Positions 7,018 through 23,189 are shown, counted from the first letter of the stretch. The stretch: 41,554 bases of DNA from Anaerolineae bacterium (GCA_041082215.1 JBDOIF010000102.1:1-41554), one strand, 5' to 3'. Notes: generated by a model from the letters alone, not told the origin. Made by a program: numbers and translations.

Positions 7018-7047
7018 ATGTAGCGCAAGATTCATCTTGCGCTACAT
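7018..7047. repeat. Perfect GTAG...CTAC REP-like palindrome
   Basis: ATGTAGCGCAAGAT-TC-ATCTTGCGCTACAT, 14-nt arms; includes the M50 gene stop codon. Confidence 0.85.
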
Positions 7048-8175
7048 GCGGTTGTTCCGTACAGGCTGCAGGAGGCCGGGGAGGGTGGTGACCAGCCGAT
7101 AGACCTCCTCCAGGTCCTGGCGTGTGAGCAGGCCCAGAAAGCGGCCTTCCTCCACGACCGGCACGGCCTCCAGGCCGCTTGCTCCCATTTTCTGCTGGGT
7201 ATCGAAGAGATCGTCCTGGGGGCGGACAAGGGGGAACTGCCTCCGCATGACCTCCCGGATCGGTACGCCGGGCCCGCGTTCCTTCAGCCCCACCAGCAGG
7301 TCGGTGCGGGTCAGCATGCCCACCAGTTGCTCGCCGTCGCAAACGGGGAAGTCAGATTGGAAACTCTCCAGGGTGAGGTCCACTGCCCGGCCCAGCGGGT
7401 CCTCAGGGTGGACCGATCGGGCGGTGCGGGAGAAGGCCTGCCCCACACGGAGGCCAGCCAGCGCCGTTTTGACCTGGACCATCCGGCCCTCCTGGGTCGC
7501 GCCGACGTAGACGAAGAGGGCGACCAGCATGGTCAAAACGTTGCGGGTCAGGAGGCCGGATAGCCCGATCAGCCAGGCCAGGCCCTGCCCGACAGAGACG
7601 GCGATGGCTGTGGCCCGTCCGTAGGGCATCACTGTGGCCAGGAGCGCCCTCAGCACCCGCCCACCGTCCATTGGGAAGGCGGGGATCAGGTTGAAGCCGG
7701 CCAGGAAGATGTTGGTGGTGACCAGATAAGGGAGCATGTAGGCCCATTCCAGCCTGCCAGCAGTCGTGATTGCACGAGCAAAGTCGAGCCAGATATGGGA
7801 GGGAAGAAAGAGGACGGTGGGCAAAGCCAGCCCCACCCCGATCAGCCCGCTGGTCACAGGACCGGCGAGGGCCATCAATAGTTCCTGGTAGGGCCGCTCC
7901 GGCAGCTCCTCCATCTGGGCCACGCCGCCCAGGGGGAGGAGGACGATCTCTTTGACCCTGGATCCGAACCCCATCGCTACCAGGCTATGGGCCAGCTCAT
8001 GCAGTACGACACAGACAAAGAGGAGGAGGGTGACCACAACCCCGAAAACAGCCCCTTCCGCCCAGTTCGGCTGGCCCAGGCCGAACTGAAAGGCAGCCAG
8101 GATCAGGATGAGGGGGAAGGTAATGTGTATACGGATGGGGATTCCCCGCACGGTCAGTAACTGAATAGAATTCAT
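7042..8175 (-). CDS. Site-2 protease (peptidase M50) with C-terminal CBS pair
   Basis: HELAH zinc motif, NLIPAFPMDGGR motif, TM helices, two C-terminal CBS repeats. Confidence 0.92.
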   Translation of the reverse strand: MNSIQLLTVRGIPIRIHITFPLILILAAFQFGLGQPNWAEGAVFGVVVTLLLFVCVVLHELAHSLVAMGFGSRVKEIVLLPLGGVAQMEELPERPYQELLMALAGPVTSGLIGVGLALPTVLFLPSHIWLDFARAITTAGRLEWAYMLPYLVTTNIFLAGFNLIPAFPMDGGRVLRALLATVMPYGRATAIAVSVGQGLAWLIGLSGLLTRNVLTMLVALFVYVGATQEGRMVQVKTALAGLRVGQAFSRTARSVHPEDPLGRAVDLTLESFQSDFPVCDGEQLVGMLTRTDLLVGLKERGPGVPIREVMRRQFPLVRPQDDLFDTQQKMGASGLEAVPVVEEGRFLGLLTRQDLEEVYRLVTTLPGLLQPVRNNRM

Positions 8176-8197
8176 TTGGATCTTCCTTTCAGTTCAG

Positions 8198-8226
8198 ACT
8201 ATATCACGGTGAGGGAGGGCTGTCAA
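8198..8226 (-). promoter_or_regulatory. Sigma70-type promoter for the M50 gene
   Basis: Minus strand TTGACA (8226-8221), 17 nt, TATAGT (8203-8198). Confidence 0.7.
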
Positions 8227-8238
8227 GCGGACCCGCGC

Positions 8239-8405
8239 CTGAGGTTCGGACGTGAGTTCGGACACAGGCGCTCATCGGCCGCTTCTGACCTCACCCCTAC
8301 CCCCCTGCCCCCTTCCCCTCTCCGCTGGCCGAGGGGGGAAGGGGGTGAGGGGGATGGGGTGAGGGTCGCTCTCCCACCCTGCCCGAACTCTTGTCCGAAC
8401 CCCGG
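8239..8405. mobile_element. MITE-like element with ~26-bp imperfect terminal inverted repeats and an internal CTCACCCC...GGGGTGAG hairpin
   Basis: Left end CTGAGGTTCGGACGTGAGTTCGGACA vs reverse complement of right end, 21/26; 8254-8297 matches 29904-29947 at 43/44 nt; no credible gene inside. Confidence 0.75.
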
Positions 8406-8415
8406 TTCCGGCCCT

Positions 8416-8444
8416 TTGCCTCCTCCGCCTTATTGGGGTATACT
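8416..8444 (+). promoter_or_regulatory. Sigma70-type promoter for the BTAD regulator
   Basis: TTGCCT (8416-8421), 17 nt, TATACT (8439-8444). Confidence 0.6.
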
Positions 8445-8495
8445 TCACAGGGTATGCAGCTCTGAGTGGAAGGGGTAACCCGCCCGGGAGTCCTC

Positions 8496-11400
8496 GTGTC
8501 TATCTCCAAGCCGGTTCTCGTCCGTTCGAAGCTGCTGGTCCCCAGCCCGGCCGGTCTTCTGCATCGGCCCAGGGTGTGTCGGTCCATCGGGCAGGGACTC
8601 GCCTGCCGGCTGACCATAGTCTCCGCCCCTGCGGGATACGGCAAGACCTCCGCGCTGGTGGATTTCGTCCAGCACACCCCGATCCCGGTCTGCTGGTATA
8701 CCGCCGACGAGCGGGATCGGGACCTTGGAGTGTTTGTCGAATACATCATCGGCGCTGTCCGCGAACGCTTCCCCGGTTTTGGCGAGCGGACCCTTATCGC
8801 ACTGGAAGCGGCCCCTGGCGAGCTATTCCAGAACCCTGCCCCCGTCGTGGGGGAGCTGGTCAACGAGCTGGTGGAGATCGGCTCCCCTCTGGTTCTGGTC
8901 GTGGATAACTACGAGGTGCTGGACGGCGCTGCCGGCATCCGGGCTTTCCTCCATCGTTTGCTCGATCTGATTCCCCCTAACGTTCACCTGATGCTGGGCA
9001 GCCGGGTGCTCCCCGACGTCCCGATCACCCAGCTTGTCGCCAAGCGCCAGCTCGTCGGCCTGACGGTGAAAGACCTCCGTTTCGAACCGGAGGAGATCCG
9101 GGAGCTGCTGCAGTTGCTCCGGATCGAGGTGTCCGAAGCCCAGGCAGAGGCGATCGCTGAGAACTCGGAGGGATGGATCACCGGCGTCCTGCTCCTGGCC
9201 GACCTGCTGCGGGAAACGGCCAGGACAGCCCTGACTGGCGCGGAGCGGGCAACCGCTGAGGCCTACGAGTATCTGGCCCGCGAGGTCCTGAGCCGGCAAC
9301 CACCGGATATCCAGGACTTCCTCCAGGTTTCGGCAGTGTTGCGGGAAATGTCGGTGCGACTGTGCCGGGATGTCCTGGACCTTGGAGCCTCTCAGGCGCT
9401 GCTGGCGGAGGTGGAACGGCGCAACCTCTTCATCACCCGCTTTGGGGAAGGGGCCGGGGCCACCTACCAGTACCACAACCTGTTCCGCGACTTCCTGCAC
9501 GAAAGGCTCCACCAGTATGACCCCGACCGTTATACCGAACTCCACCGTCGCGCTGCGGGCCACTTCGAGCAGGAAGGGGACGTGGAGGAGGCGGTGTACC
9601 ACTACCTCACCGCCGGAATGTACCCACAGGCGACGGCGGTGATGGAACGGGTGGCGATGGAATGGTTCGTCCGCGGGCGGGTAGAGGCGCTGGTGCGATG
9701 GGGCGAGGAGCTTCCGGAGGAGGTGCGCGATCAGGCTCCCCGGTTGTCGTTATACCAGAGCAAGGTGCTCACAGACCGGTATGACTACGAGGGAGCACGG
9801 CGGGCGTTGACCCACGCCGAGTCCGGTTTCGCCGCCCAGGGGGACGTCTCCAATCTGGCTATGGTCCACATCCAGCGGGCGACGCTGGGGCTGTTTGAGG
9901 GGCGTTATGGGGATACCCTCGCCGAGGCCCAGGCCGCCCTGGAGAAACTGGCTCACCCCGAAACGGCGAAACGGGCGGAGGCGCTGCGGCTGATCGGACG
10001 CGCTTCCATCGGCCTGGGGCACGTCCCCGAAGGGATCGCGAGGCTGCGGGAGGCTCTGGCACTGTACCGGCAGGTGGGCAGCCCCTACAACGTGGCCAAC
10101 CTGTTGCAGGACCTGACGCTGGCGTTCACCATGCAGGGGCTTTTCGACGAGGCGGCAGCCTGCCTGAACGAGGCACTGACCATCGGGCGACGGCTGGATG
10201 CGCCGACATTGCTGGCCGGCGTGCTGAACAACCTGGGCTGGCTCCACCATATGCGGGGGGAGTACCAGGAAGCCCTGGCGCTCTACGAGGAGGGACTGGC
10301 TGCAGCAAGGAGGGGAGGGGTCCTGTGGCTTCAGGCGAATATCTCGGTGGGAATGGCCGATCTCTATCGGGACCTGGGAGCCTACGGTCGGGCCGAGCCG
10401 CTGTATAACGCTGGCTGGCAGATCGCCCGGACGAGCGAGCCTGGCCTGGCCGTCTACATCCTGACCGCGCAGGCAGATATGTACCGGTGGCGGGGAGAGT
10501 ACGGCCGGTCTGCTCAGACACTGGAACAGGCCCGACATCTGGCAGAGGAAAAGGGGCTGGAGTTCGAGTTGCAGGGCCTGTTGCCGATGTCCGAGGGGAT
10601 CCTGCTGGCCGAAAGAGGGGAAGGGTCCACCGGCCACCGCGCCCTCTCTGAGGCGGTCCGCTTCCTGGAGCAGAGAAAGGCGACGCGGGAGCTGGCACGC
10701 GCCCGGTTCCTGCTGGCAAAGGCCCATTTCCTGGCAGGGGATCGGGCCAGGGCCGTAGCAGAGCTGCGGCTGGCGATGGGGCTGGCGAAAGAGATCGGCA
10801 CAGACCAGTTCGCCGTCGCGGAGGGACAGCACAGCCCGGGACTGCTGGAACTTGGCATCGCGGAAGGGGTGACAGCCTGCCTGACCACGGCCGAAAAGGT
10901 CCGCAAGCTGAGGGCCTTTGCCGGCAGGGAAGGAGAAATGGCCAGGGAGGAGACGGCCTTTCTGGAGATCTACGCCTTCGGAGGAGGACGGGTCGTCCGT
11001 GACGGCCATCTGGTCTCTTCCTCCGAATGGCAGGCCTCTATGGCCAAGGAACTGTTTTTCTACATCCTCCTCCATGGGCCGGTCAGTCGGGATGCTGTAG
11101 GGCTTGTGTTCTGGCCGGATGCATCGCCCAAGGGGATGCGGGACAGTTTTCACACCACGCTTTATCGCATACGGCGTGCTCTGGGCACAGAAGCAGTGGT
11201 GATGGAGGAGGGAGAATACCGGCTGGGCGACGTGGCCTACTGGTTCGATGTCGAGGAATTCGAGACCCTCGTCGGGCGGGCGCGGCTGCTCCCGCCCGGC
11301 GACTGGCAGACGGAGCATCTCTGGCAGCAGGCGGTCGCCCTCTACAAGGGCGATTTCCTCCCCGAGGTGGAGCGCATCTGGTGCGTGCCGAAGCGGGAAG

Positions 11401-11696
11401 CGCTCCGGCAGATGTACATTGAGGCCCTGATCGGCCTTGGGGCGTGTTATGAGGCGCGTGGTGAGGTGGAAGAGGCCGTCGCCTGGTACCGGCGGGCGCT
11501 GGAGGTGGATGAGCTGCGGGAGGATGTGCACCGACAGATCATGCGCTGCTATGCCAGCGCTGGCCGACGTCCGGAAGCGGTGGCCCAGTACCGTCAATGT
11601 CGGGAGATTCTGCGCCGAGAGCTGGGGGTTGACCCATCGGCTGAAACGAAAGAGCTGTACCGTCGGATCGTCGGAAAGGGAACCGGCCGGGAGTAG
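8496..11696 (+). CDS. Large transcriptional regulator: MalT-like STAND NTPase, TPR array, C-terminal wHTH and BTAD (SARP-type)
   Basis: SKLLVP...LLHRPR N-terminus, Walker A APAGYGKT, Walker B LVVDNY, SEGWITG, many TPR-like repeats (LNNLGWLHHMRGEYQEALALYEEGL), BTAD signature LYKGDFL...ALEVDELREDVHRQIMRCY...ELGVDPSAET. GTG start with GGAG RBS; alternative start 8466. Confidence 0.9.
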   Translation: MSISKPVLVRSKLLVPSPAGLLHRPRVCRSIGQGLACRLTIVSAPAGYGKTSALVDFVQHTPIPVCWYTADERDRDLGVFVEYIIGAVRERFPGFGERTLIALEAAPGELFQNPAPVVGELVNELVEIGSPLVLVVDNYEVLDGAAGIRAFLHRLLDLIPPNVHLMLGSRVLPDVPITQLVAKRQLVGLTVKDLRFEPEEIRELLQLLRIEVSEAQAEAIAENSEGWITGVLLLADLLRETARTALTGAERATAEAYEYLAREVLSRQPPDIQDFLQVSAVLREMSVRLCRDVLDLGASQALLAEVERRNLFITRFGEGAGATYQYHNLFRDFLHERLHQYDPDRYTELHRRAAGHFEQEGDVEEAVYHYLTAGMYPQATAVMERVAMEWFVRGRVEALVRWGEELPEEVRDQAPRLSLYQSKVLTDRYDYEGARRALTHAESGFAAQGDVSNLAMVHIQRATLGLFEGRYGDTLAEAQAALEKLAHPETAKRAEALRLIGRASIGLGHVPEGIARLREALALYRQVGSPYNVANLLQDLTLAFTMQGLFDEAAACLNEALTIGRRLDAPTLLAGVLNNLGWLHHMRGEYQEALALYEEGLAAARRGGVLWLQANISVGMADLYRDLGAYGRAEPLYNAGWQIARTSEPGLAVYILTAQADMYRWRGEYGRSAQTLEQARHLAEEKGLEFELQGLLPMSEGILLAERGEGSTGHRALSEAVRFLEQRKATRELARARFLLAKAHFLAGDRARAVAELRLAMGLAKEIGTDQFAVAEGQHSPGLLELGIAEGVTACLTTAEKVRKLRAFAGREGEMAREETAFLEIYAFGGGRVVRDGHLVSSSEWQASMAKELFFYILLHGPVSRDAVGLVFWPDASPKGMRDSFHTTLYRIRRALGTEAVVMEEGEYRLGDVAYWFDVEEFETLVGRARLLPPGDWQTEHLWQQAVALYKGDFLPEVERIWCVPKREALRQMYIEALIGLGACYEARGEVEEAVAWYRRALEVDELREDVHRQIMRCYASAGRRPEAVAQYRQCREILRRELGVDPSAETKELYRRIVGKGTGRE

Positions 11697-11729
11697 TTCG
11701 CGCCCCATCAGCCCAATCGGTTGGAACAG

Positions 11730-11754
11730 AGACCGCCGGCCGGGCGGTCTTTTT
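11730..11754 (+). terminator. Rho-independent terminator after the BTAD regulator
   Basis: AGACCGCC-ggccg-GGCGGTCT followed by TTTT. Confidence 0.75.
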
Positions 11755-11764
11755 CGTCTTCTCT

Positions 11765-11797
11765 GTCAGAGATTTGTTCAGAATGCGGTGTTATTTT
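11765..11797 (+). promoter_or_regulatory. Putative activator-dependent promoter of the small-ORF cluster
   Basis: Extended -10 TGtTATTTT (11789-11797), no consensus -35; direct repeat GTCAGAG/TTCAGAA (11765, 11777) lies over the -35 region. Confidence 0.4.
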
Positions 11798-11855
11798 AAA
11801 AGCAGATCGTAAACCAATCCGACGGGAGTTTCAAGAGAAGAAGGAGGCAATCAAG

Positions 11856-12023
11856 ATGGCAGGTAAGGGCGGCAGGCTGATCCTGGTGCTGATGGCTGTG
11901 GTGCTTTTGCTGACGCTGGCTCTGAGCTTCGCGGCACCCGCGACGTCGGCGCTTCTGGTGGATCCCTGGGAAGGGGCAATTCAGATGGCGGGGCCGGTCG
12001 TCGGCGGGGGCAGTGGGGCATAA
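11856..12023 (+). CDS. 55-aa secreted propeptide (candidate signalling-peptide precursor)
   Basis: AAGGAGG RBS; MAGKGGR basic N-region, long hydrophobic H-region, Ala-rich cleavage region, C-terminus QMAGPVVGGGSGA. Confidence 0.7.
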   Translation: MAGKGGRLILVLMAVVLLLTLALSFAAPATSALLVDPWEGAIQMAGPVVGGGSGA

Positions 12024-12043
12024 AGACAAGACGGAGCATAGGT

Positions 12044-12247
12044 ATGCCCACTCGCAGAATTGATGAATTGATCTGGATGGCCCTGACCGATGCCGCTTTT
12101 CGGGACCGGTTGCTCGGAGGCCATCGCCGTGAGCTGGTGAGGGCGCTCAATCTGACAGAGGCGGAGCAGCAGATCGTCCTGGCGATTAAGGCGGATTCGC
12201 TAGAGGCTTTCGCGGGCGCACTTTGCCAGGCGGGAGCCTGCGGATAA
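12044..12247 (+). CDS. 67-aa small protein resembling NHLP-leader clan (Os1348/Franean1_4349-like) proteins
   Basis: GGAG RBS; IDELIWMALTDAAFRDRLL...LNLTEAE resembles the A-x-x-D-x-x-F-R-x-x-L-L...L-T-x-x-E pattern of NHLP-like leaders (recognised from memory, not searched). Confidence 0.65.
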   Translation: MPTRRIDELIWMALTDAAFRDRLLGGHRRELVRALNLTEAEQQIVLAIKADSLEAFAGALCQAGACG

Positions 12248-12354
12248 ATGGGCCTCGTCCCCGTCGTCGCCCCGCCCCTCCAGGGCCGTTGGACTGCCCT
12301 GTCACCCACCGCTTGAGCGAGGGAAGCCTAATGTGGGTAGAGGGGGATAGTGGC

Positions 12355-12585
12355 ATGCTGACACCACGGGTGGTGAAGGAGACGGTCGAATCACTCGTCG
12401 AGGCTCTGTTTTCCTTAGACGAGCCATGGCGGGGCCGTTTTCTGAGCCTGGTGGCCACATGGGCCACGGGAGGGACCTGGAACGGGCGGCGTCCACGGCG
12501 GGAGGAGGTGACCGCCTGGCTGGCAGCGGATACGGGCCTCTGTCGGGTGGTCCGGCTTATGCTCAACTCCTGGCAGCGGCCTTAG
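12355..12585 (+). CDS. Hypothetical 76-aa protein
   Basis: GAGGGG RBS upstream of ATG 12355 (alternative 12331); protein-like helical sequence LVEALFSLDEPWRGRFLSLVA...EEVTAWLAAD. Confidence 0.55.
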   Translation: MLTPRVVKETVESLVEALFSLDEPWRGRFLSLVATWATGGTWNGRRPRREEVTAWLAADTGLCRVVRLMLNSWQRP

Positions 12586-12654
12586 AGCTTCTCTGAAAAC
12601 CACGAAGGAGAGAAAGGACACAAACGTGCCCTTTGTGGTAGCTGCCTGCTGCCA

Positions 12655-12745
12655 TCACGAATGACACGAACGCGCGAATTCACACGAATAAAAAAAGCGC
12701 TCTACAATTCGTGGGATTCGGTCCATTCGTGCCATTTGTGATGAA
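12655..12745. repeat. Mirrored nonamer array (CACGAAT-like units, then ATTCGTG-like units)
   Basis: cacgaatga cacgaacgc gcgaattca cacgaat ... attcgtggg attcggtcc attcgtgcc atttgtga, forming a long imperfect inverted repeat between convergent genes. Confidence 0.75.
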
Positions 12746-19416: not shown

Positions 19417-20250
19417 TTACCCCCTCCGCATGCGCCAGGCCAGCAAGCTGGAGATCGCCAGCCCCAGGGTGAGCAGGGAGAGGCCGCCCACCAGCGGCCA
19501 TGGGGCCGGTCGGCCACCCTGTGCTGGAGGGGGAGCAGTCGTTGCTTCTTTCTCCTCGGCCCCGGCGAAGAGCTGAGGGGTGGGAGTTACGCCCCGATCC
19601 ACCGGCTGCGTGAGGGAAAGGGTGGGCGTCCCGGTGGGTGTGGCCAGGGCCGCCCTCGGCGGGGGCGGGGCCTGGGCTGGCTGCGCCGTTCCCGTAAGGG
19701 CCGCTTCGGCCCCCAGGATGGGCGGTGTCCATTCGCCCGTTGGCTCCACCCACTGCCTTGCCGAAAGCTCCTCTACCGCTGCTTCTTCTTCGGCCGTCGC
19801 CGTCTGCTCCGCCGGAGGCCCGGCAAGGGCATAGACCTGTTCCTCTTCTGGCGTTGCCTCCATCGGCATTCCTGCGATCGGGACGGGAGGAGCAGAGGCG
19901 GGCAGGGCAGCCCCACCGCCGAGAAGGCTCCCCACCAGCACAACCATACACAGTAGCCCGCTGACGGCTGTGGCGAAGGTGAGGGCGGGGGCCAGCCACC
20001 GACGGGGAGCCCGGCGAGGCTCTGTCCGCCCAACCATGGAAGGGGTGAGCAGGAAGTTACGGGGAGCTCGAACCTGGGGCAGGCCCCGCACCAGTGCCAC
20101 CGTCTGCCGCAGCTCCTCCAGGCGTGCCCGCAGGTCGGCGTCGGCTTCCAGCCGGGCCTCGAGCCAGGCCCGCTCTCCTGGACCCAACTCATCGTCCAGA
20201 TAGGCGGAGAGCAGCTCATCTATTCGCGCTCGGCCCCTCTTCTCTCTCAT
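19417..20250 (-). CDS. Putative anti-sigma factor
   Basis: ELLSAYLDDEL N-terminal anti-sigma-like helix, PRNFLLT, TM helix, Pro/Ala-rich region, second C-terminal TM; 4-nt overlap with the ECF sigma gene. Confidence 0.8.
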   Translation of the reverse strand: MREKRGRARIDELLSAYLDDELGPGERAWLEARLEADADLRARLEELRQTVALVRGLPQVRAPRNFLLTPSMVGRTEPRRAPRRWLAPALTFATAVSGLLCMVVLVGSLLGGGAALPASAPPVPIAGMPMEATPEEEQVYALAGPPAEQTATAEEEAAVEELSARQWVEPTGEWTPPILGAEAALTGTAQPAQAPPPPRAALATPTGTPTLSLTQPVDRGVTPTPQLFAGAEEKEATTAPPPAQGGRPAPWPLVGGLSLLTLGLAISSLLAWRMRRG

Positions 20251-20849
20251 TGCGAATCCCTATCCTCAAGACGATAAGAGCGGGGCAGGAGTTCCGCCCG
20301 CGCCTGCAACAGGTCCCTCAGCCTGCCCCGCGCCCGCGCCAGGCGTGATTTCACCGTCCCCACGGGCACGCCGACGGTCCGGGCGATCTCAGTGTAGTCC
20401 ATCCCTTCCACGTCGGAGAGGACCAGCACCATGCGCTGATCGGCGGGCAGGGAGGCGATGGCCCCCTGGAGGAAACGGGCCAGTTCCGCCCGCTCGACGC
20501 TCTCCTCAGGGGATTCTCCGCCGTTGACGAGGGCCGGGTTGGCCTCTTCGTCCACTTCCCCAAACTCCTCCCAGGAGGTAGTGGGACGCCGTTTCTGACG
20601 ACGAAGCTCGTCGTAGCAGCGGTTGGCCACGATCCGCAACAGCCAGGAGCAGAACGACCCTCCCCGGAAGGTGCCGATCTTCTGATAAGCGGTGATGAGG
20701 GCTTCCTGTGTGGTGTCCGAGGCCGCGGCCGGATCGCCCAGGATGCGGTAGGCAAGGTTGTAGACCCGGTGCTGGTAGGTCAGCACCAGCTCGTTGAAGG
20801 CATCCAGGTTGCCGCGCTGGGCTGCACGGATCAGAGCCGCCTCATCCAT
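20247..20849 (-). CDS. ECF (sigma-70 group 4) RNA polymerase sigma factor
   Basis: Region 2 (AFNELV...DTTQEALI...SWLLRIVANRCYD) and region 4 (EGMDYTEIA...VPVGTVKSRLARAR). Confidence 0.93.
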   Translation of the reverse strand: MDEAALIRAAQRGNLDAFNELVLTYQHRVYNLAYRILGDPAAASDTTQEALITAYQKIGTFRGGSFCSWLLRIVANRCYDELRRQKRRPTTSWEEFGEVDEEANPALVNGGESPEESVERAELARFLQGAIASLPADQRMVLVLSDVEGMDYTEIARTVGVPVGTVKSRLARARGRLRDLLQARAELLPRSYRLEDRDSQ

Positions 20850-20957
20850 CGGGACCCCTCTGTTTTTCTCACCACGGAGGCCCAGAGAACACGGGTTCTT
20901 CCAAAATTATCCCTCTTTTTCTCAAAAAGTGAAGTGTCTGCCGGATCGCAGGGGGCT

Positions 20958-22073
20958 TCAATCCAGCCGGCGGCTTACGCCCTGCACCGATAGGCTCAGG
21001 ATGGCGATCCCCAGCCCGCCGAGGGCTAGGGCATGAGGCCAAAGGTCAGTCAGGGCGGCCCCCTTCAGCATGACCGCCCGGATGATCACCAGATAGTGAT
21101 ACATCGGCACAGCCCGCGCGATCAATTGCAGCAGCCGGGGCAGGTTTTCCACCGGCACCAGGTAGCCGGAAAAAGTGATGTCCACAATCGCCAGGATGAA
21201 GACAAAAAGGATCGCCTGCTGCTGATTGCGGGCAATGGCGGAGATGATCACCCCCCACCCGATCTCGGCGATGATGAACAGGGAGGTGAGGCCTAAAAGC
21301 AGCAGGAAAGAGCCGCGCAGCGGCAGGTGGAAGAAGTGGATGGCGATTGCAAAAATGGACAGGAAGTTCAGCTCGCCAATGATAAAGGCAGGGACCGCCT
21401 TACCCAGTACCAGCTCCAGGCGGCTGAGGGGGCTGACGATCAACTGCTCCAGCGTGCCCAGCTCCCGCTCCCGCGCCAGACCGAGGGAGGCGATCACGAG
21501 GGTGATCTGAAAGGTGATGAACCCCACCTGGGCGGGGATGGCGAAGTGACGGATGTTATATGTGGGGTTGTAAAGGGTCTCCACACGCAGGTCCACCAGC
21601 AGGGTAGCTGAGACCCCCAGAGCCTCCAACCGCTCCTGCCCGTATTCGGCGAACACCGCGCTGGCGGCGCTCAGGGCGATGGACCCCGCCACACTGTTCG
21701 ACCCGTCCACCACCACCCTTACCCGGGCCGTACGGAGGGGGTCGGCCAGGTCGCGGGCAAAGCCCTGCGGCATGATCACCCCCACCCGCACCTCCCCCCG
21801 GTCCAGCAGGTCCCGCAGGTGGTCCTCATCCTCCGCAAAGCACCAGACCGACAGCTCCTCCCTGTTCTCCAGCTCGGCGATCAACTGGCGGCTGACGGAA
21901 GAGCGGTCCAGGTCCAGCACCGCTACCCGCAGGTCGCCGATCCGTCGGCCGGTGGCCTGGGCCAGAAGGAGCAACTGGACGATCGGGACCAGGAAGATGA
22001 GCGTGGTCATCAGCCGGTCGCGGGCGAGCTGGGTGATCTCCTTGCGTACCAGGTTCAGGATGCGCAGGATCAT
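20958..22073 (-). CDS. ABC-2 type transporter permease (YbhR-like)
   Basis: RKEITQLARD, extracytoplasmic domain, ARERELGTLEQLIVSP, six-TM layout. Confidence 0.9.
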   Translation of the reverse strand: MILRILNLVRKEITQLARDRLMTTLIFLVPIVQLLLLAQATGRRIGDLRVAVLDLDRSSVSRQLIAELENREELSVWCFAEDEDHLRDLLDRGEVRVGVIMPQGFARDLADPLRTARVRVVVDGSNSVAGSIALSAASAVFAEYGQERLEALGVSATLLVDLRVETLYNPTYNIRHFAIPAQVGFITFQITLVIASLGLARERELGTLEQLIVSPLSRLELVLGKAVPAFIIGELNFLSIFAIAIHFFHLPLRGSFLLLLGLTSLFIIAEIGWGVIISAIARNQQQAILFVFILAIVDITFSGYLVPVENLPRLLQLIARAVPMYHYLVIIRAVMLKGAALTDLWPHALALGGLGIAILSLSVQGVSRRLD

Positions 22074-22076
22074 AGG

Positions 22077-23189
22077 CTACCCCAACCGCTTTCGGAACAG
22101 CAGGAGGCCGGAGGCAAAGCCCAGTCCCCCCATCCCAAGAAGGACGGCGGCCGGGAGCAGCAGCGCCTCCCCTCCCAACCCCTTGAGAAACAGCCCCCGA
22201 CTGACAGCGATGAAGTGGGTGGTCGGAAGGCTGTAGGCGACGATCCTTGACCCCAGGCTGCTGGTATCCACCGGCGTGATCAGCCCGGCGACGAAGAAGC
22301 TGGGGATGAAGAAGATCATCAACACCAGCAGCATTGCTGTCTGCTGAGTGCGTGTGAAATTGGCGATCAGCAGGCTGAACCCCATCGAGGCCAGCAGGTA
22401 ATCGGCTCCCAGGAGGAGGTAAAGGAGCGGACTGCCCCGGAAGGGTACCCGGAAGTAAAGGACGGCGATCAGCCAGACGAGGAGGACGCTGACCAGGCCG
22501 CTGGAGAGGTAGGCAAACAGTTTCCCCGCCAGGTACTCCGTGCCGCGGACAGGGGTGACGATCAGACTCTCGAAGGAGCCAACCTCTTTTTCCCGCGTGA
22601 AAGCCAGGGCCAGGGCCAGGGCGGGCATGGAGAGGACGATGGGGATCAGCCCCGGCACCATGCTGATCAGAGACTTGAGGGCCGGATTGTACCAGGCCTC
22701 GCCCCGGACCTCCAGGCCGCCCACCACAAGGGTCGGAGAGGCCCGGAACGGCGCGGCAAAGGCGACGGTCCGCTGCTGGAGGGAGAAGAAGGTCTGGCTG
22801 GCTGCAATGGGATCGGAGCCATCCAGCACTACCTGCACCTGAACCTGGCGGCCGGCCTGCAGGCCGGCCTCGAACCCCTGGGGGATCACCAGCCCTCCAT
22901 CCACCTCCCCTGCCAGAAGAAGGCGGTCCAGCTCTGTGTAGGAAGTAGCAGGGGCACGGACCCGGAAATCGCCGTCGGCGGTCAGCACCGCCACGTACCG
23001 GCGGGAAAGGGGGCTGCCATCCAGGTCCCACACCGCCAGGTCTGCCTGCTGGACATCCAGAACGAAAATGTAGGAAAGGGTGAGGAGGAGGAAAGCGGGA
23101 GAGACGGTGACCAGGAAGAAGGTCCTCAGGTCCCGCAGGATATGGCGAATTTCCTTACGCGCTATGGCGAGGGTACGGTGGATAGACAT
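22077..23189 (-). CDS. ABC-2 type transporter permease (YbhS-like)
   Basis: ARKEIRHILRD, WYNPAL, TREKEVGSFESLIVTP, six-TM layout. Confidence 0.9.
   Translation of the reverse strand: MSIHRTLAIARKEIRHILRDLRTFFLVTVSPAFLLLTLSYIFVLDVQQADLAVWDLDGSPLSRRYVAVLTADGDFRVRAPATSYTELDRLLLAGEVDGGLVIPQGFEAGLQAGRQVQVQVVLDGSDPIAASQTFFSLQQRTVAFAAPFRASPTLVVGGLEVRGEAWYNPALKSLISMVPGLIPIVLSMPALALALAFTREKEVGSFESLIVTPVRGTEYLAGKLFAYLSSGLVSVLLVWLIAVLYFRVPFRGSPLLYLLLGADYLLASMGFSLLIANFTRTQQTAMLLVLMIFFIPSFFVAGLITPVDTSSLGSRIVAYSLPTTHFIAVSRGLFLKGLGGEALLLPAAVLLGMGGLGFASGLLLFRKRLG

Follow-up and report, generated by a model that had tools for sequence, protein, structure and literature searches.

A large cytoplasmic regulator followed directly by a gene for a short, apparently exported peptide raises the question of whether the two form a signalling pair and, if so, which of them acts on the other. 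To our knowledge, peptide signalling through cytoplasmic receptors has been characterised essentially in Bacillota and their phages. An arrangement of this kind lies in a 41,554-nucleotide (nt) stretch of DNA from an Anaerolineae bacterium (GCA_041082215.1, JBDOIF010000102.1:1-41554), referred to here as the window. The original prediction for positions 8496-12023 was a quorum-sensing-like cassette in which a receptor composed of a STAND ATPase, tetratricopeptide repeats (TPR) and a BTAD-type output domain is followed by a secreted propeptide. The analysis described below favours, at a probability of roughly 0.6, a conserved Chloroflexota cassette, so far without a name, whose large cytoplasmic switch protein would turn on a small operon for an exported peptide. 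That the peptide also feeds back on the TPR sensor of the regulator, as in true quorum sensing, is a tentative and rather unlikely extension of this proposal. Literature searches, with subscription journals outside their coverage, found no published description of the cassette.

A pre-peptide gene and a neighbouring STAND-TPR-SARP regulator

The element for which a secreted product had been proposed comprises the following features, with lengths in amino acids (aa).

11856..12023, plus strand: glycine-tail pre-peptide gene, 55 aa
11856..11951, plus strand: signal-peptide-like part, aa 1-32, with an n-region of +2, a hydrophobic core and an Ala-x-Ala-type end (heuristic scan)
11982..12020, plus strand: conserved C-terminal unit, aa 43-55 (26-sequence alignment)

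Related loci were collected by a scan of one genome per species with an alignment of the 67-aa LigA-like protein encoded by the next gene of the operon. The scan found 28 loci, one of which, a weak Myxococcales match (E 6e-4), was dropped. All 27 remaining loci belong to Chloroflexota metagenome-assembled genomes (Anaerolineae, Anaerolineales, Thermoflexia or Thermoflexales), and the phylum suggested from the window alone is thereby borne out. At each of the 27, a homologous small open reading frame (ORF) stops 3-50 nt short of the first LigA-like gene, and a small ORF also directly precedes the LigA-like gene at all six loci of a paralogous module described below. The start codon was chosen by way of the core of a ribosome-binding site (RBS), or of its first four letters, at 24 of the 28 loci tried. 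The ratio of nonsynonymous to synonymous substitution rates (dN/dS) is 0.32-0.45 in three equal-length peptide pairs, the only ones for which it was computable. A profile of 26 peptides retrieved 94 clusters at E <= 1e-3 among 1.84 billion representatives, almost all of them 47-75 aa long and matched end to end. With one spurious match of 650 aa left out, 84 of the 93 clusters analysed carry Gly-Gly-Ser/Thr within the last nine residues, and 79 carry a Pro 6-14 residues from the end. A word-indexed protein search returned 29 peptide clusters, all named hypothetical, and the organism names given were Chloroflexota only. Because of this positional conservation, the dN/dS values, the 94 clusters and the conserved tail, the peptide gene is almost certainly real. 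The competing idea, that the ORF arose by chance or is a non-coding leader and that the regulator merely neighbours unrelated genes, draws on the many spurious ORFs that high G+C DNA yields and on a single-sequence look-up of the 55-aa peptide, which retrieved the ORF itself alone. It is hardly credible for an ORF whose position, frame, RBS and both termini are conserved at every one of these loci and whose dN/dS stays below 0.5.

The 26 aligned peptides share a basic start, a hydrophobic core of 14-20 residues, a stretch of Gly/Pro and small residues, and the last 12-14 residues, and the spacer between the conserved parts varies in length. The C-terminal unit reads Pro-x-x-Gly-Gly-Gly-Ser-x-x, and its Pro47 and Ser53 (numbering of the window's peptide) are kept in at least 90% of the alignment. 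In three relatives (L013/L051, L015/L052 and L014/L048) this unit occurs in tandem, in two to three or more copies. The signal-peptide-like N-terminus and the Gly-rich C-terminus that had been read from the window's ORF are thus family traits, the former in that a heuristic scan found an n-region of +1 to +4 and a hydrophobic core of 14-20 residues in 24 of the 26 peptides, with a candidate small-residue site after the core in 22 of these 24. Export of the peptide is accordingly predicted with reasonable confidence. Cleavage after Ala45, as originally proposed, was not confirmed, and the conserved unit begins about four residues before Pro47. Sequencing runs that contain positions 11000-12700 are DNA runs labelled hot-spring metagenomes only, with no RNA run listed.

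Two further observations concern individual peptide genes. At L014/L048, which belong to one genome, a run of N interrupts the tandem-repeat gene, the assembler apparently having been unable to resolve the repeat copies. At L043 (5906-5980, 25 aa) and L067 (2190-2243, 18 aa), mini-ORFs with an RBS and a Gly-Gly-Gly-Ser tail lack the hydrophobic core; these may be decaying copies, or the tail may work without Sec export.

The gene upstream encodes a protein of three recognisable parts.

8466..11696, plus strand: regulator gene, a 1076-aa ORF from GTG 8466; start codon uncertain (8466 or later)
8487..9590, plus strand: MalT-type STAND nucleotide-binding/oligomerisation module (NOD), aa 8-375 (match to PDB 8bob)
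9783..10865, plus strand: TPR sensor region, about aa 440-800 (TPR_12, TPR_MalT and TPR_10 matches)
10950..11672, plus strand: C-terminal output domain of SARP (Streptomyces antibiotic regulatory protein) type, winged helix-turn-helix (HTH) plus BTAD, aa 829-1069 (PF03704, AfsR model)

The prediction of a protein of about 1070 aa with an NTPase, a TPR array and a winged HTH/BTAD output agrees with these matches. Its start at 8496 corresponds to codon 11 of the frame that opens at GTG 8466, so that the element is present and its true start uncertain. The NCBIfam equivalog model for MalT matches aa 18-570 at E 1e-71, with a score of 242 that lies below the cut-off of 537, and a profile of 19 regulator orthologues matches the MalT structure 8bob at E 1e-47 over profile positions 8-375. 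In the alignment of these 19 sequences the P-loop (G57, K60, T61) and the Walker-B aspartate D147 are invariant. Against solved structures the TPR region gives generic TPR matches, among them Rap and NprR at E 1e-8 to 1e-6. BTAD (PF03704) is matched by aa 927-1068 at E 7e-28, an AfsR-type SARP model spans aa 829-1069, and the AfsR structures 8k60 and 8jke are matched at E ~4e-19 (8k60 over profile positions 820-1064). EmbR (2fez) is a further structural match. Family-model scans detected no LuxR/GerE HTH in the regulator, the C-terminus being a SARP instead. The domain order is therefore NOD-TPR-SARP, with the SARP C-terminal. In one relative (L018, genome G039) the orthologous regulator frame holds a single in-frame TAG above an intact cassette, which may reflect a sequencing error or a pseudogene.

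A putative SARP box and the coupling of regulator and cassette

Between the two genes lie the following elements.

11728..11757, plus strand: intrinsic terminator 3' of the regulator gene, made up of a 10-pair stem (11728-11752) and a T run after it
11764..11771, plus strand: upstream direct repeat of a putative SARP box, aligning with the repeat conserved in 19 loci
11775..11783, plus strand: downstream direct repeat of the putative SARP box, exactly 8 nt before the -10 hexamer
11792..11797, plus strand: candidate -10 hexamer (TAnnnT) of the peptide operon promoter, at a distance from the second repeat that is conserved across loci
11841..11847, plus strand: RBS AAGGAGG of the peptide gene, 8 nt 5' of ATG 11856

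The terminator, originally placed at 11730-11754, was recovered a few bases off, and the strong AAGGAGG RBS was found as described. An alignment of upstream regions shows an equivalent hairpin in most orthologous loci, followed by two repeats of 8-9 nt with a period of 11-12 nt (three copies in L059 and L062) and, about 8 nt past the repeats and 35-59 nt before the start codon of the peptide gene, by a TAnnnT hexamer. Repeat box and hexamer are conserved in 19 of the 23 loci examined, including L071, where the cassette is unlinked from its regulator; two further loci without upstream DNA were left out of this count. In a repeat scan the box was the best repeat of period 10 to 12 in 13 of 22 loci, with 8-9 of 9 matches, scores that were reached by at most seven of 200 shuffles; at L044 the highest-scoring repeat is a different, RBS-proximal one. 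SARP targets are described as direct repeats 11 or 22 bp apart, each holding one SARP protomer, 8 bp lying between the 3' repeat and the -10 element (PMC10936776), and the promoter geometry of the window and its relatives, with a putative box of period 11-12 nt, matches the rule as stated there. No such box was seen by eye 5' of the regulator gene (8176-8465), and the idea of autoregulation was set aside. From the box of SARP geometry, together with the co-occurrence of regulator and cassette detailed next, we infer that the regulator very probably activates the promoter of the peptide operon.

The coupling of the two parts is close. A full-length orthologous regulator stands upstream on the same strand at 17 of the 27 loci (57-70% identity), and one cut by a contig end at five more (62-75% identity); the last five have too little upstream DNA to judge. 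The regulator thus adjoins the peptide gene in the window and at 22 of 22 informative loci, L055 and L065 having about 0.9-1.4 kb between the two. A conserved small ORF 3' of regulator homologues, which had been named as a check on the original prediction, is accordingly what was found. Of 41 related genomes, which are kin and not independent samples, 10 encode a regulator orthologue (at least 58% identity), and it is exactly these 10 that have a type-A LigA-like gene (E <= 2e-26). Neither part occurs in 30 of the other 31, and the remaining one, G006, has only a weaker LigA-like match of the paralogous type and a 38% regulator. In G027 both parts are kept, on different contigs. None of the 27 loci has the genes that flank the cassette in the window (M50 protease, patatin, M20 peptidase, DUF401), save for M20 in the closest relative, and the linkage of regulator and cassette is therefore not plain synteny. 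The M50 protease with CBS domains (7042-8175) had been considered as a site-2 protease that matures the peptide, and was rejected on account of this absence.

A paralogous module repeats the arrangement. The window's own genome encodes a second regulator of the family at 37% identity (contig C34) and a third at 30%. In genomes G001, G005 and G011, the genes directly after a paralogue of 37-39% identity are a 56-63-aa ORF, one for a LigA-like protein and one for a conserved protein of about 180 aa, and the paralogous peptide ORF has a short amphipathic start, a hydrophobic segment and a tail of the same Gly type. In the window's own genome, contig C14 carries the paralogous trio unlinked from its regulator: at L003 1420-2065 (minus strand), a hydrophobic 57-aa peptide whose Gly/Ser tail is similar and an 87-aa LigA-like protein, and after these a conserved protein of about 205 aa. 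The C14 pair sits behind its own direct-repeat box of different sequence, and the 37%-identical paralogue on C34 is likely its cognate regulator. The three module-2 promoters that were read have the same geometry and a different repeat sequence. Since regulator, box, Gly-tail peptide and LigA-like protein are kept together in two paralogous sets, their arrangement argues that the four belong together functionally.

The remaining operon genes and their surroundings

The predicted pair of receptor and propeptide is present, and to it the operon adds a LigA-like protein always and a third protein usually, downstream of the peptide gene.

12044..12247, plus strand: LigA/NHLP-like small protein, 67 aa (NF038399, PF14407; orthologues at 52-73% identity)
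12355..12585, plus strand: third operon gene, for a four-helix protein of 76 aa (or 84 aa from ATG 12331), without a family and conserved in 15 of 27 loci

The three genes lie on one strand and are spaced 20 nt and about 85-107 nt apart. The 67-aa protein matches NF038399 (Os1348 NHLP-clan) at E 7e-7 with 29 bits, under the cut-off of 40, and PF14407 (Frankia_peptide) at E 1e-3 with 20 bits, under the cut-off of 48. Its structural model has a predicted local distance difference test (pLDDT) score of 83. The top VIA-align rows for this model, all with Z below 6, fit a common theme: the C-terminal domain of a borosin methyltransferase (5.8), the borosin precursor SonA (5.6), DesB (5.5) and LigA (5.3). 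Os1348 itself reaches 3.7, and Foldseek returned nothing at E <= 0.001. As described in PMC12353581, ECOD groups LigA-like folds with Frankia_peptide, Nif11 and ComX.

The model of the third protein (pLDDT 86) has four helices. The protein belongs to eight clusters in 5.8 billion proteins. Neither Pfam nor NCBIfam matched it, Foldseek found nothing similar at E <= 0.001, the ESM Atlas gave no usable match, and its family was not found in 400 other genomes sampled evenly across the phylum. At the third position, some loci carry this helical domain by itself, as the window does, some an IrrE/M78-like domain by itself and some the pair, which is fused in four full copies plus a truncated one and separate at one locus; at least one of the two domains is present in 25 of the 27 loci. 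The IrrE/M78-like domain (L041 6818-7621, L060 6519-7064 and 14 other loci) scores above the Pfam cut-off at E 6e-12 to 8e-9. In 15 of its 16 copies the motif His-Glu-x-x-His is missing anywhere in the protein, the aligned position holding Arg, Glu or Val. Because of this loss the domain is probably not a protease, and that role, which had been considered, was rejected.

Additional copies of the helical domain, 71-72 aa long, lie on contigs C57 and C7 of the window's own genome (L075 4923-5138 and L076 4925-5143). They follow genes that, by eye only, resemble Tad/Flp-pilus assembly genes, and they sit just before near-identical sequence at contig ends, which suggests a repeated or mobile element.

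The genes around the cassette differ among relatives. At seven of 13 loci (L041, L043, L044, L045, L047, L050 and L066), the cassette faces two convergent genes about 0.1-1 kb downstream on the opposite strand, for a phosphoglycosyl transferase (Bac_transf) and a GT4 glycosyltransferase, with upstream neighbours that differ from locus to locus. At four others (L055, L060, L061 and L065), a family-3 solute-binding protein comes next on the same strand and a YfhO/PTPS_related membrane protein of 1210-1226 aa converges. None of these Bac_transf/GT4, family-3 solute-binding or YfhO-type neighbours occurs in the window. A link of the cassette to glycan or envelope synthesis is possible. Elsewhere in the window (19417-23189, minus strand), an unannotated 277-aa ORF (19417-20250) is immediately preceded by a gene for an extracytoplasmic-function-type sigma factor (20247-20849) and, further upstream, by two ABC-2 permease genes (20958-23189). 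This is probably an unrelated envelope-stress or export unit.

How the cassette might work

The course of events that we favour, a cytoplasmic switch that turns on the operon for an exported peptide, would begin with a triggered sensor and oligomerisation of the STAND ATPase. The repeats would then be occupied by two adjacent SARP domains, which would recruit RNA polymerase in the way that AfsR does at afsS. After export by Sec, the pre-peptide would be cut by signal peptidase, and its C-terminal unit of about 13-14 residues would be the active part outside the cell, as a signal or an effector, with the LigA-like and helical proteins as cytoplasmic partners to which no role is assigned. Several observations weigh against this proposal. 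The hydrophobic core of the peptide is long (up to 20 residues) and compatible with an uncleaved membrane anchor. The tail of the paralogous peptide follows its hydrophobic segment within about 7-10 residues, without a clear Ala-x-Ala site, and the mini-ORFs of L043 and L067 mean that export may not be essential. Four of the 23 loci examined (L055, L064, L065 and L066) have no box within 150 nt. The window's own repeats are weaker than those of its relatives, agreeing by eye at 5 of 9 positions when offset by 12 nt, and were not picked by the repeat scan. Finally, the scheme leaves the roles of the LigA-like and helical proteins without explanation.

Several known systems come close to the cassette. 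The AfsR-AfsS system of Streptomyces likewise joins a SARP, a STAND-type NOD and TPRs in one protein, acts on a small neighbouring gene whose -10 hexamer adjoins two direct repeats, and yields an internally repeated small product, as do some relatives of the window. In the Chloroflexota cassette, however, the SARP is C-terminal instead of N-terminal, the NOD is MalT-like, the small product is signal-peptide-like with a Gly-rich tail, and the operon always adds a LigA-like protein. The SARP layouts given in the available part of a review are N-terminal only (PMC10972967). Of the AfsR-type layout the regulator has the winged HTH and BTAD, and lacks the succession of N-terminal SARP, NOD and TPR. 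With the MalT/LAL STAND activators it shares a homologous N-terminal ATPase and arm (8bob, E 1e-47) followed by a helical-repeat sensor, but it carries a SARP output in place of the LuxR-type HTH and has no sugar-regulon context.

An RRNPP receptor is a cytoplasmic protein of TPR fold, about 300-450 aa long, with an N-terminal HTH or a phosphatase-type helical domain. In the RRNPP pairs (Rap-Phr, PlcR-PapR, NprR-NprX and AimR-AimP), as here, a cytoplasmic TPR regulator adjoins a pre-peptide of 45-65 aa, for which export is predicted in the present case, and the C-terminal part forms a conserved unit that is tandem in some members, as it is for Phr (PMC11343458). The regulator of the window, in contrast, is a 1076-aa STAND ATPase with a MalT-type NOD, TPRs and a C-terminal SARP output, as against a TPR-only protein with an N-terminal HTH. 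The Chloroflexota operon furthermore has extra genes and little diversification of the tail. The cassette is not an RRNPP member, nor is it a RiPP cluster (RiPPs being ribosomally synthesised and post-translationally modified peptides). Its 67-aa second gene product matches the models of the Os1348, NHLP-clan and Frankia_peptide leader domains, which are LigA-like, and is modelled with what may be the same helical motif (Z only 5.3-5.8), but these matches are sub-cut-off, no core-peptide-like extension follows, and the flanks of 13 loci show no maturase. Os1348 of Pseudomonas sp. Os17 is described as an antibiotic-related small protein beside GNAT, HEXXH and SagB-type genes (PMC7726476), and no neighbours of these three kinds occur at the cassette.

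In a closed quorum-sensing loop, the trimmed Gly-tail peptide would be taken up again and bind the TPR sensor of a regulator that activates its own peptide operon. The adjacency and exact co-occurrence of regulator and cassette apply to this idea as well, and of the proposed link between receptor and peptide it is these that stand; the link that can be read from the DNA runs from the regulator to the peptide promoter, not from the peptide to the TPR. A promoter link of that kind would supply positive feedback, which is typical for such loops. The C-terminal unit is conserved and in some relatives occurs in tandem, tandem pheromone copies being reported for Rap-Phr propeptides also (PMC11343458), the genome encodes 13 family-5 solute-binding proteins of the oligopeptide-permease type, and the two paralogous modules of one genome differ in details of box and tail. 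Yet the core of the tail is near-invariant across regulators of 57-75% identity and across the 37%-identical paralogous module, and pherotypes would thus have diverged little, where typical pheromone families diversify more than this Gly tail does. Signal-less mini-ORFs exist (L043, L067), the ever-present LigA-like partner is without a role in the loop, and the known inducers of MalT-type sensors are small molecules and not peptides. When the C-terminal 30 residues of the pre-peptide (26-row alignment) were co-folded with the TPR sensor (aa 425-830, 19-row alignment), the run scores were 0.12, 0.62 and 0.08, which weigh neither for nor against binding. A closed loop is improbable enough to be put forward as a suggestion only. 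Its fullest form would be a new type of peptide signalling outside Bacillota, in which the unit of about 13-14 residues is re-imported and induces the STAND ATPase, the SARP activates its own operon, the LigA-like protein is an intracellular peptide-binding partner, and the paralogous sets are separate channels; this is more doubtful still.

A one-way scheme like that of AfsR and AfsS, in which some other cue (a metabolite, phosphorylation or stress) is sensed and the small products are downstream effectors and not the ligand, is quite conceivable, if short of an even chance. The effectors would be a secreted or membrane micro-protein together with small cytoplasmic modulators. The domain set of the regulator equals that of AfsR (SARP, NOD and TPR), the small target gene adjoins behind a two-repeat box beside the -10 hexamer as at afsS, the small product bears repeats in some relatives, and regulator and cassette can be unlinked, as in G027 and in module 2 of the window's own genome. 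The permuted domain order and the MalT-type NOD speak against it, as does the signal-peptide-like N-terminus of 24 of the 26 peptides, AfsS being cytoplasmic. A natural-product or bacteriocin locus under a SARP activator could take one of two forms: the LigA-like protein would be a RiPP precursor with unlinked maturases, or the Sec-exported peptide would be an unmodified bacteriocin, with immunity conferred by the helical protein. Antibiotic clusters are the classical targets of SARP activation (PMC10972967), Os1348 itself is tied to antibiotic activity (PMC7726476), and the LigA-like protein matches the Os1348 NHLP-clan and Frankia_peptide models, the best fold rows of its model including a borosin precursor and LigA-like domains. 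Both family matches, however, fall below curated cut-offs, only 3-15 residues follow the conserved Cys of the LigA-like protein (none in type-B copies), and no fold matched the helical protein. The flanks of 13 loci contain 69 ORFs of 230 aa or more, and these show no recurring YcaO, LanB/C/M, ATP-grasp, SPASM or C39-ABC family; one locus encodes a radical SAM protein of DUF512 type. Family scans found no maturase or C39 exporter in the window, and the 96%-complete genome gave no match to YcaO or C39. A LanC search was silent in every control genome, and its blank result carries no information. A natural-product locus is thus a distinctly improbable reading.

For the biology of these bacteria, the cassette that we favour, in which a regulator would turn on an operon for an exported peptide, means that thermophilic Chloroflexota of one lineage possess a module, compact, conserved and duplicated, that is built on a permuted SARP/STAND switch with a recognisable putative box. 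In its available part, the review cited above treats SARP regulators as a matter of actinomycetes (PMC10972967). To this the module adds Gly-tail peptides of an unnamed family with about 90 clusters, predicted to be exported, and a protein resembling leader peptides that has no biosynthetic enzymes nearby, and it offers experimental handles in the box, which lends itself to footprinting, in the candidate peptide of 13-14 residues and in the sensor domain. If the loop closes, peptide quorum sensing would gain a new class of receptor; otherwise the cassette would extend the logic of AfsR-AfsS to another phylum, with a secreted product.

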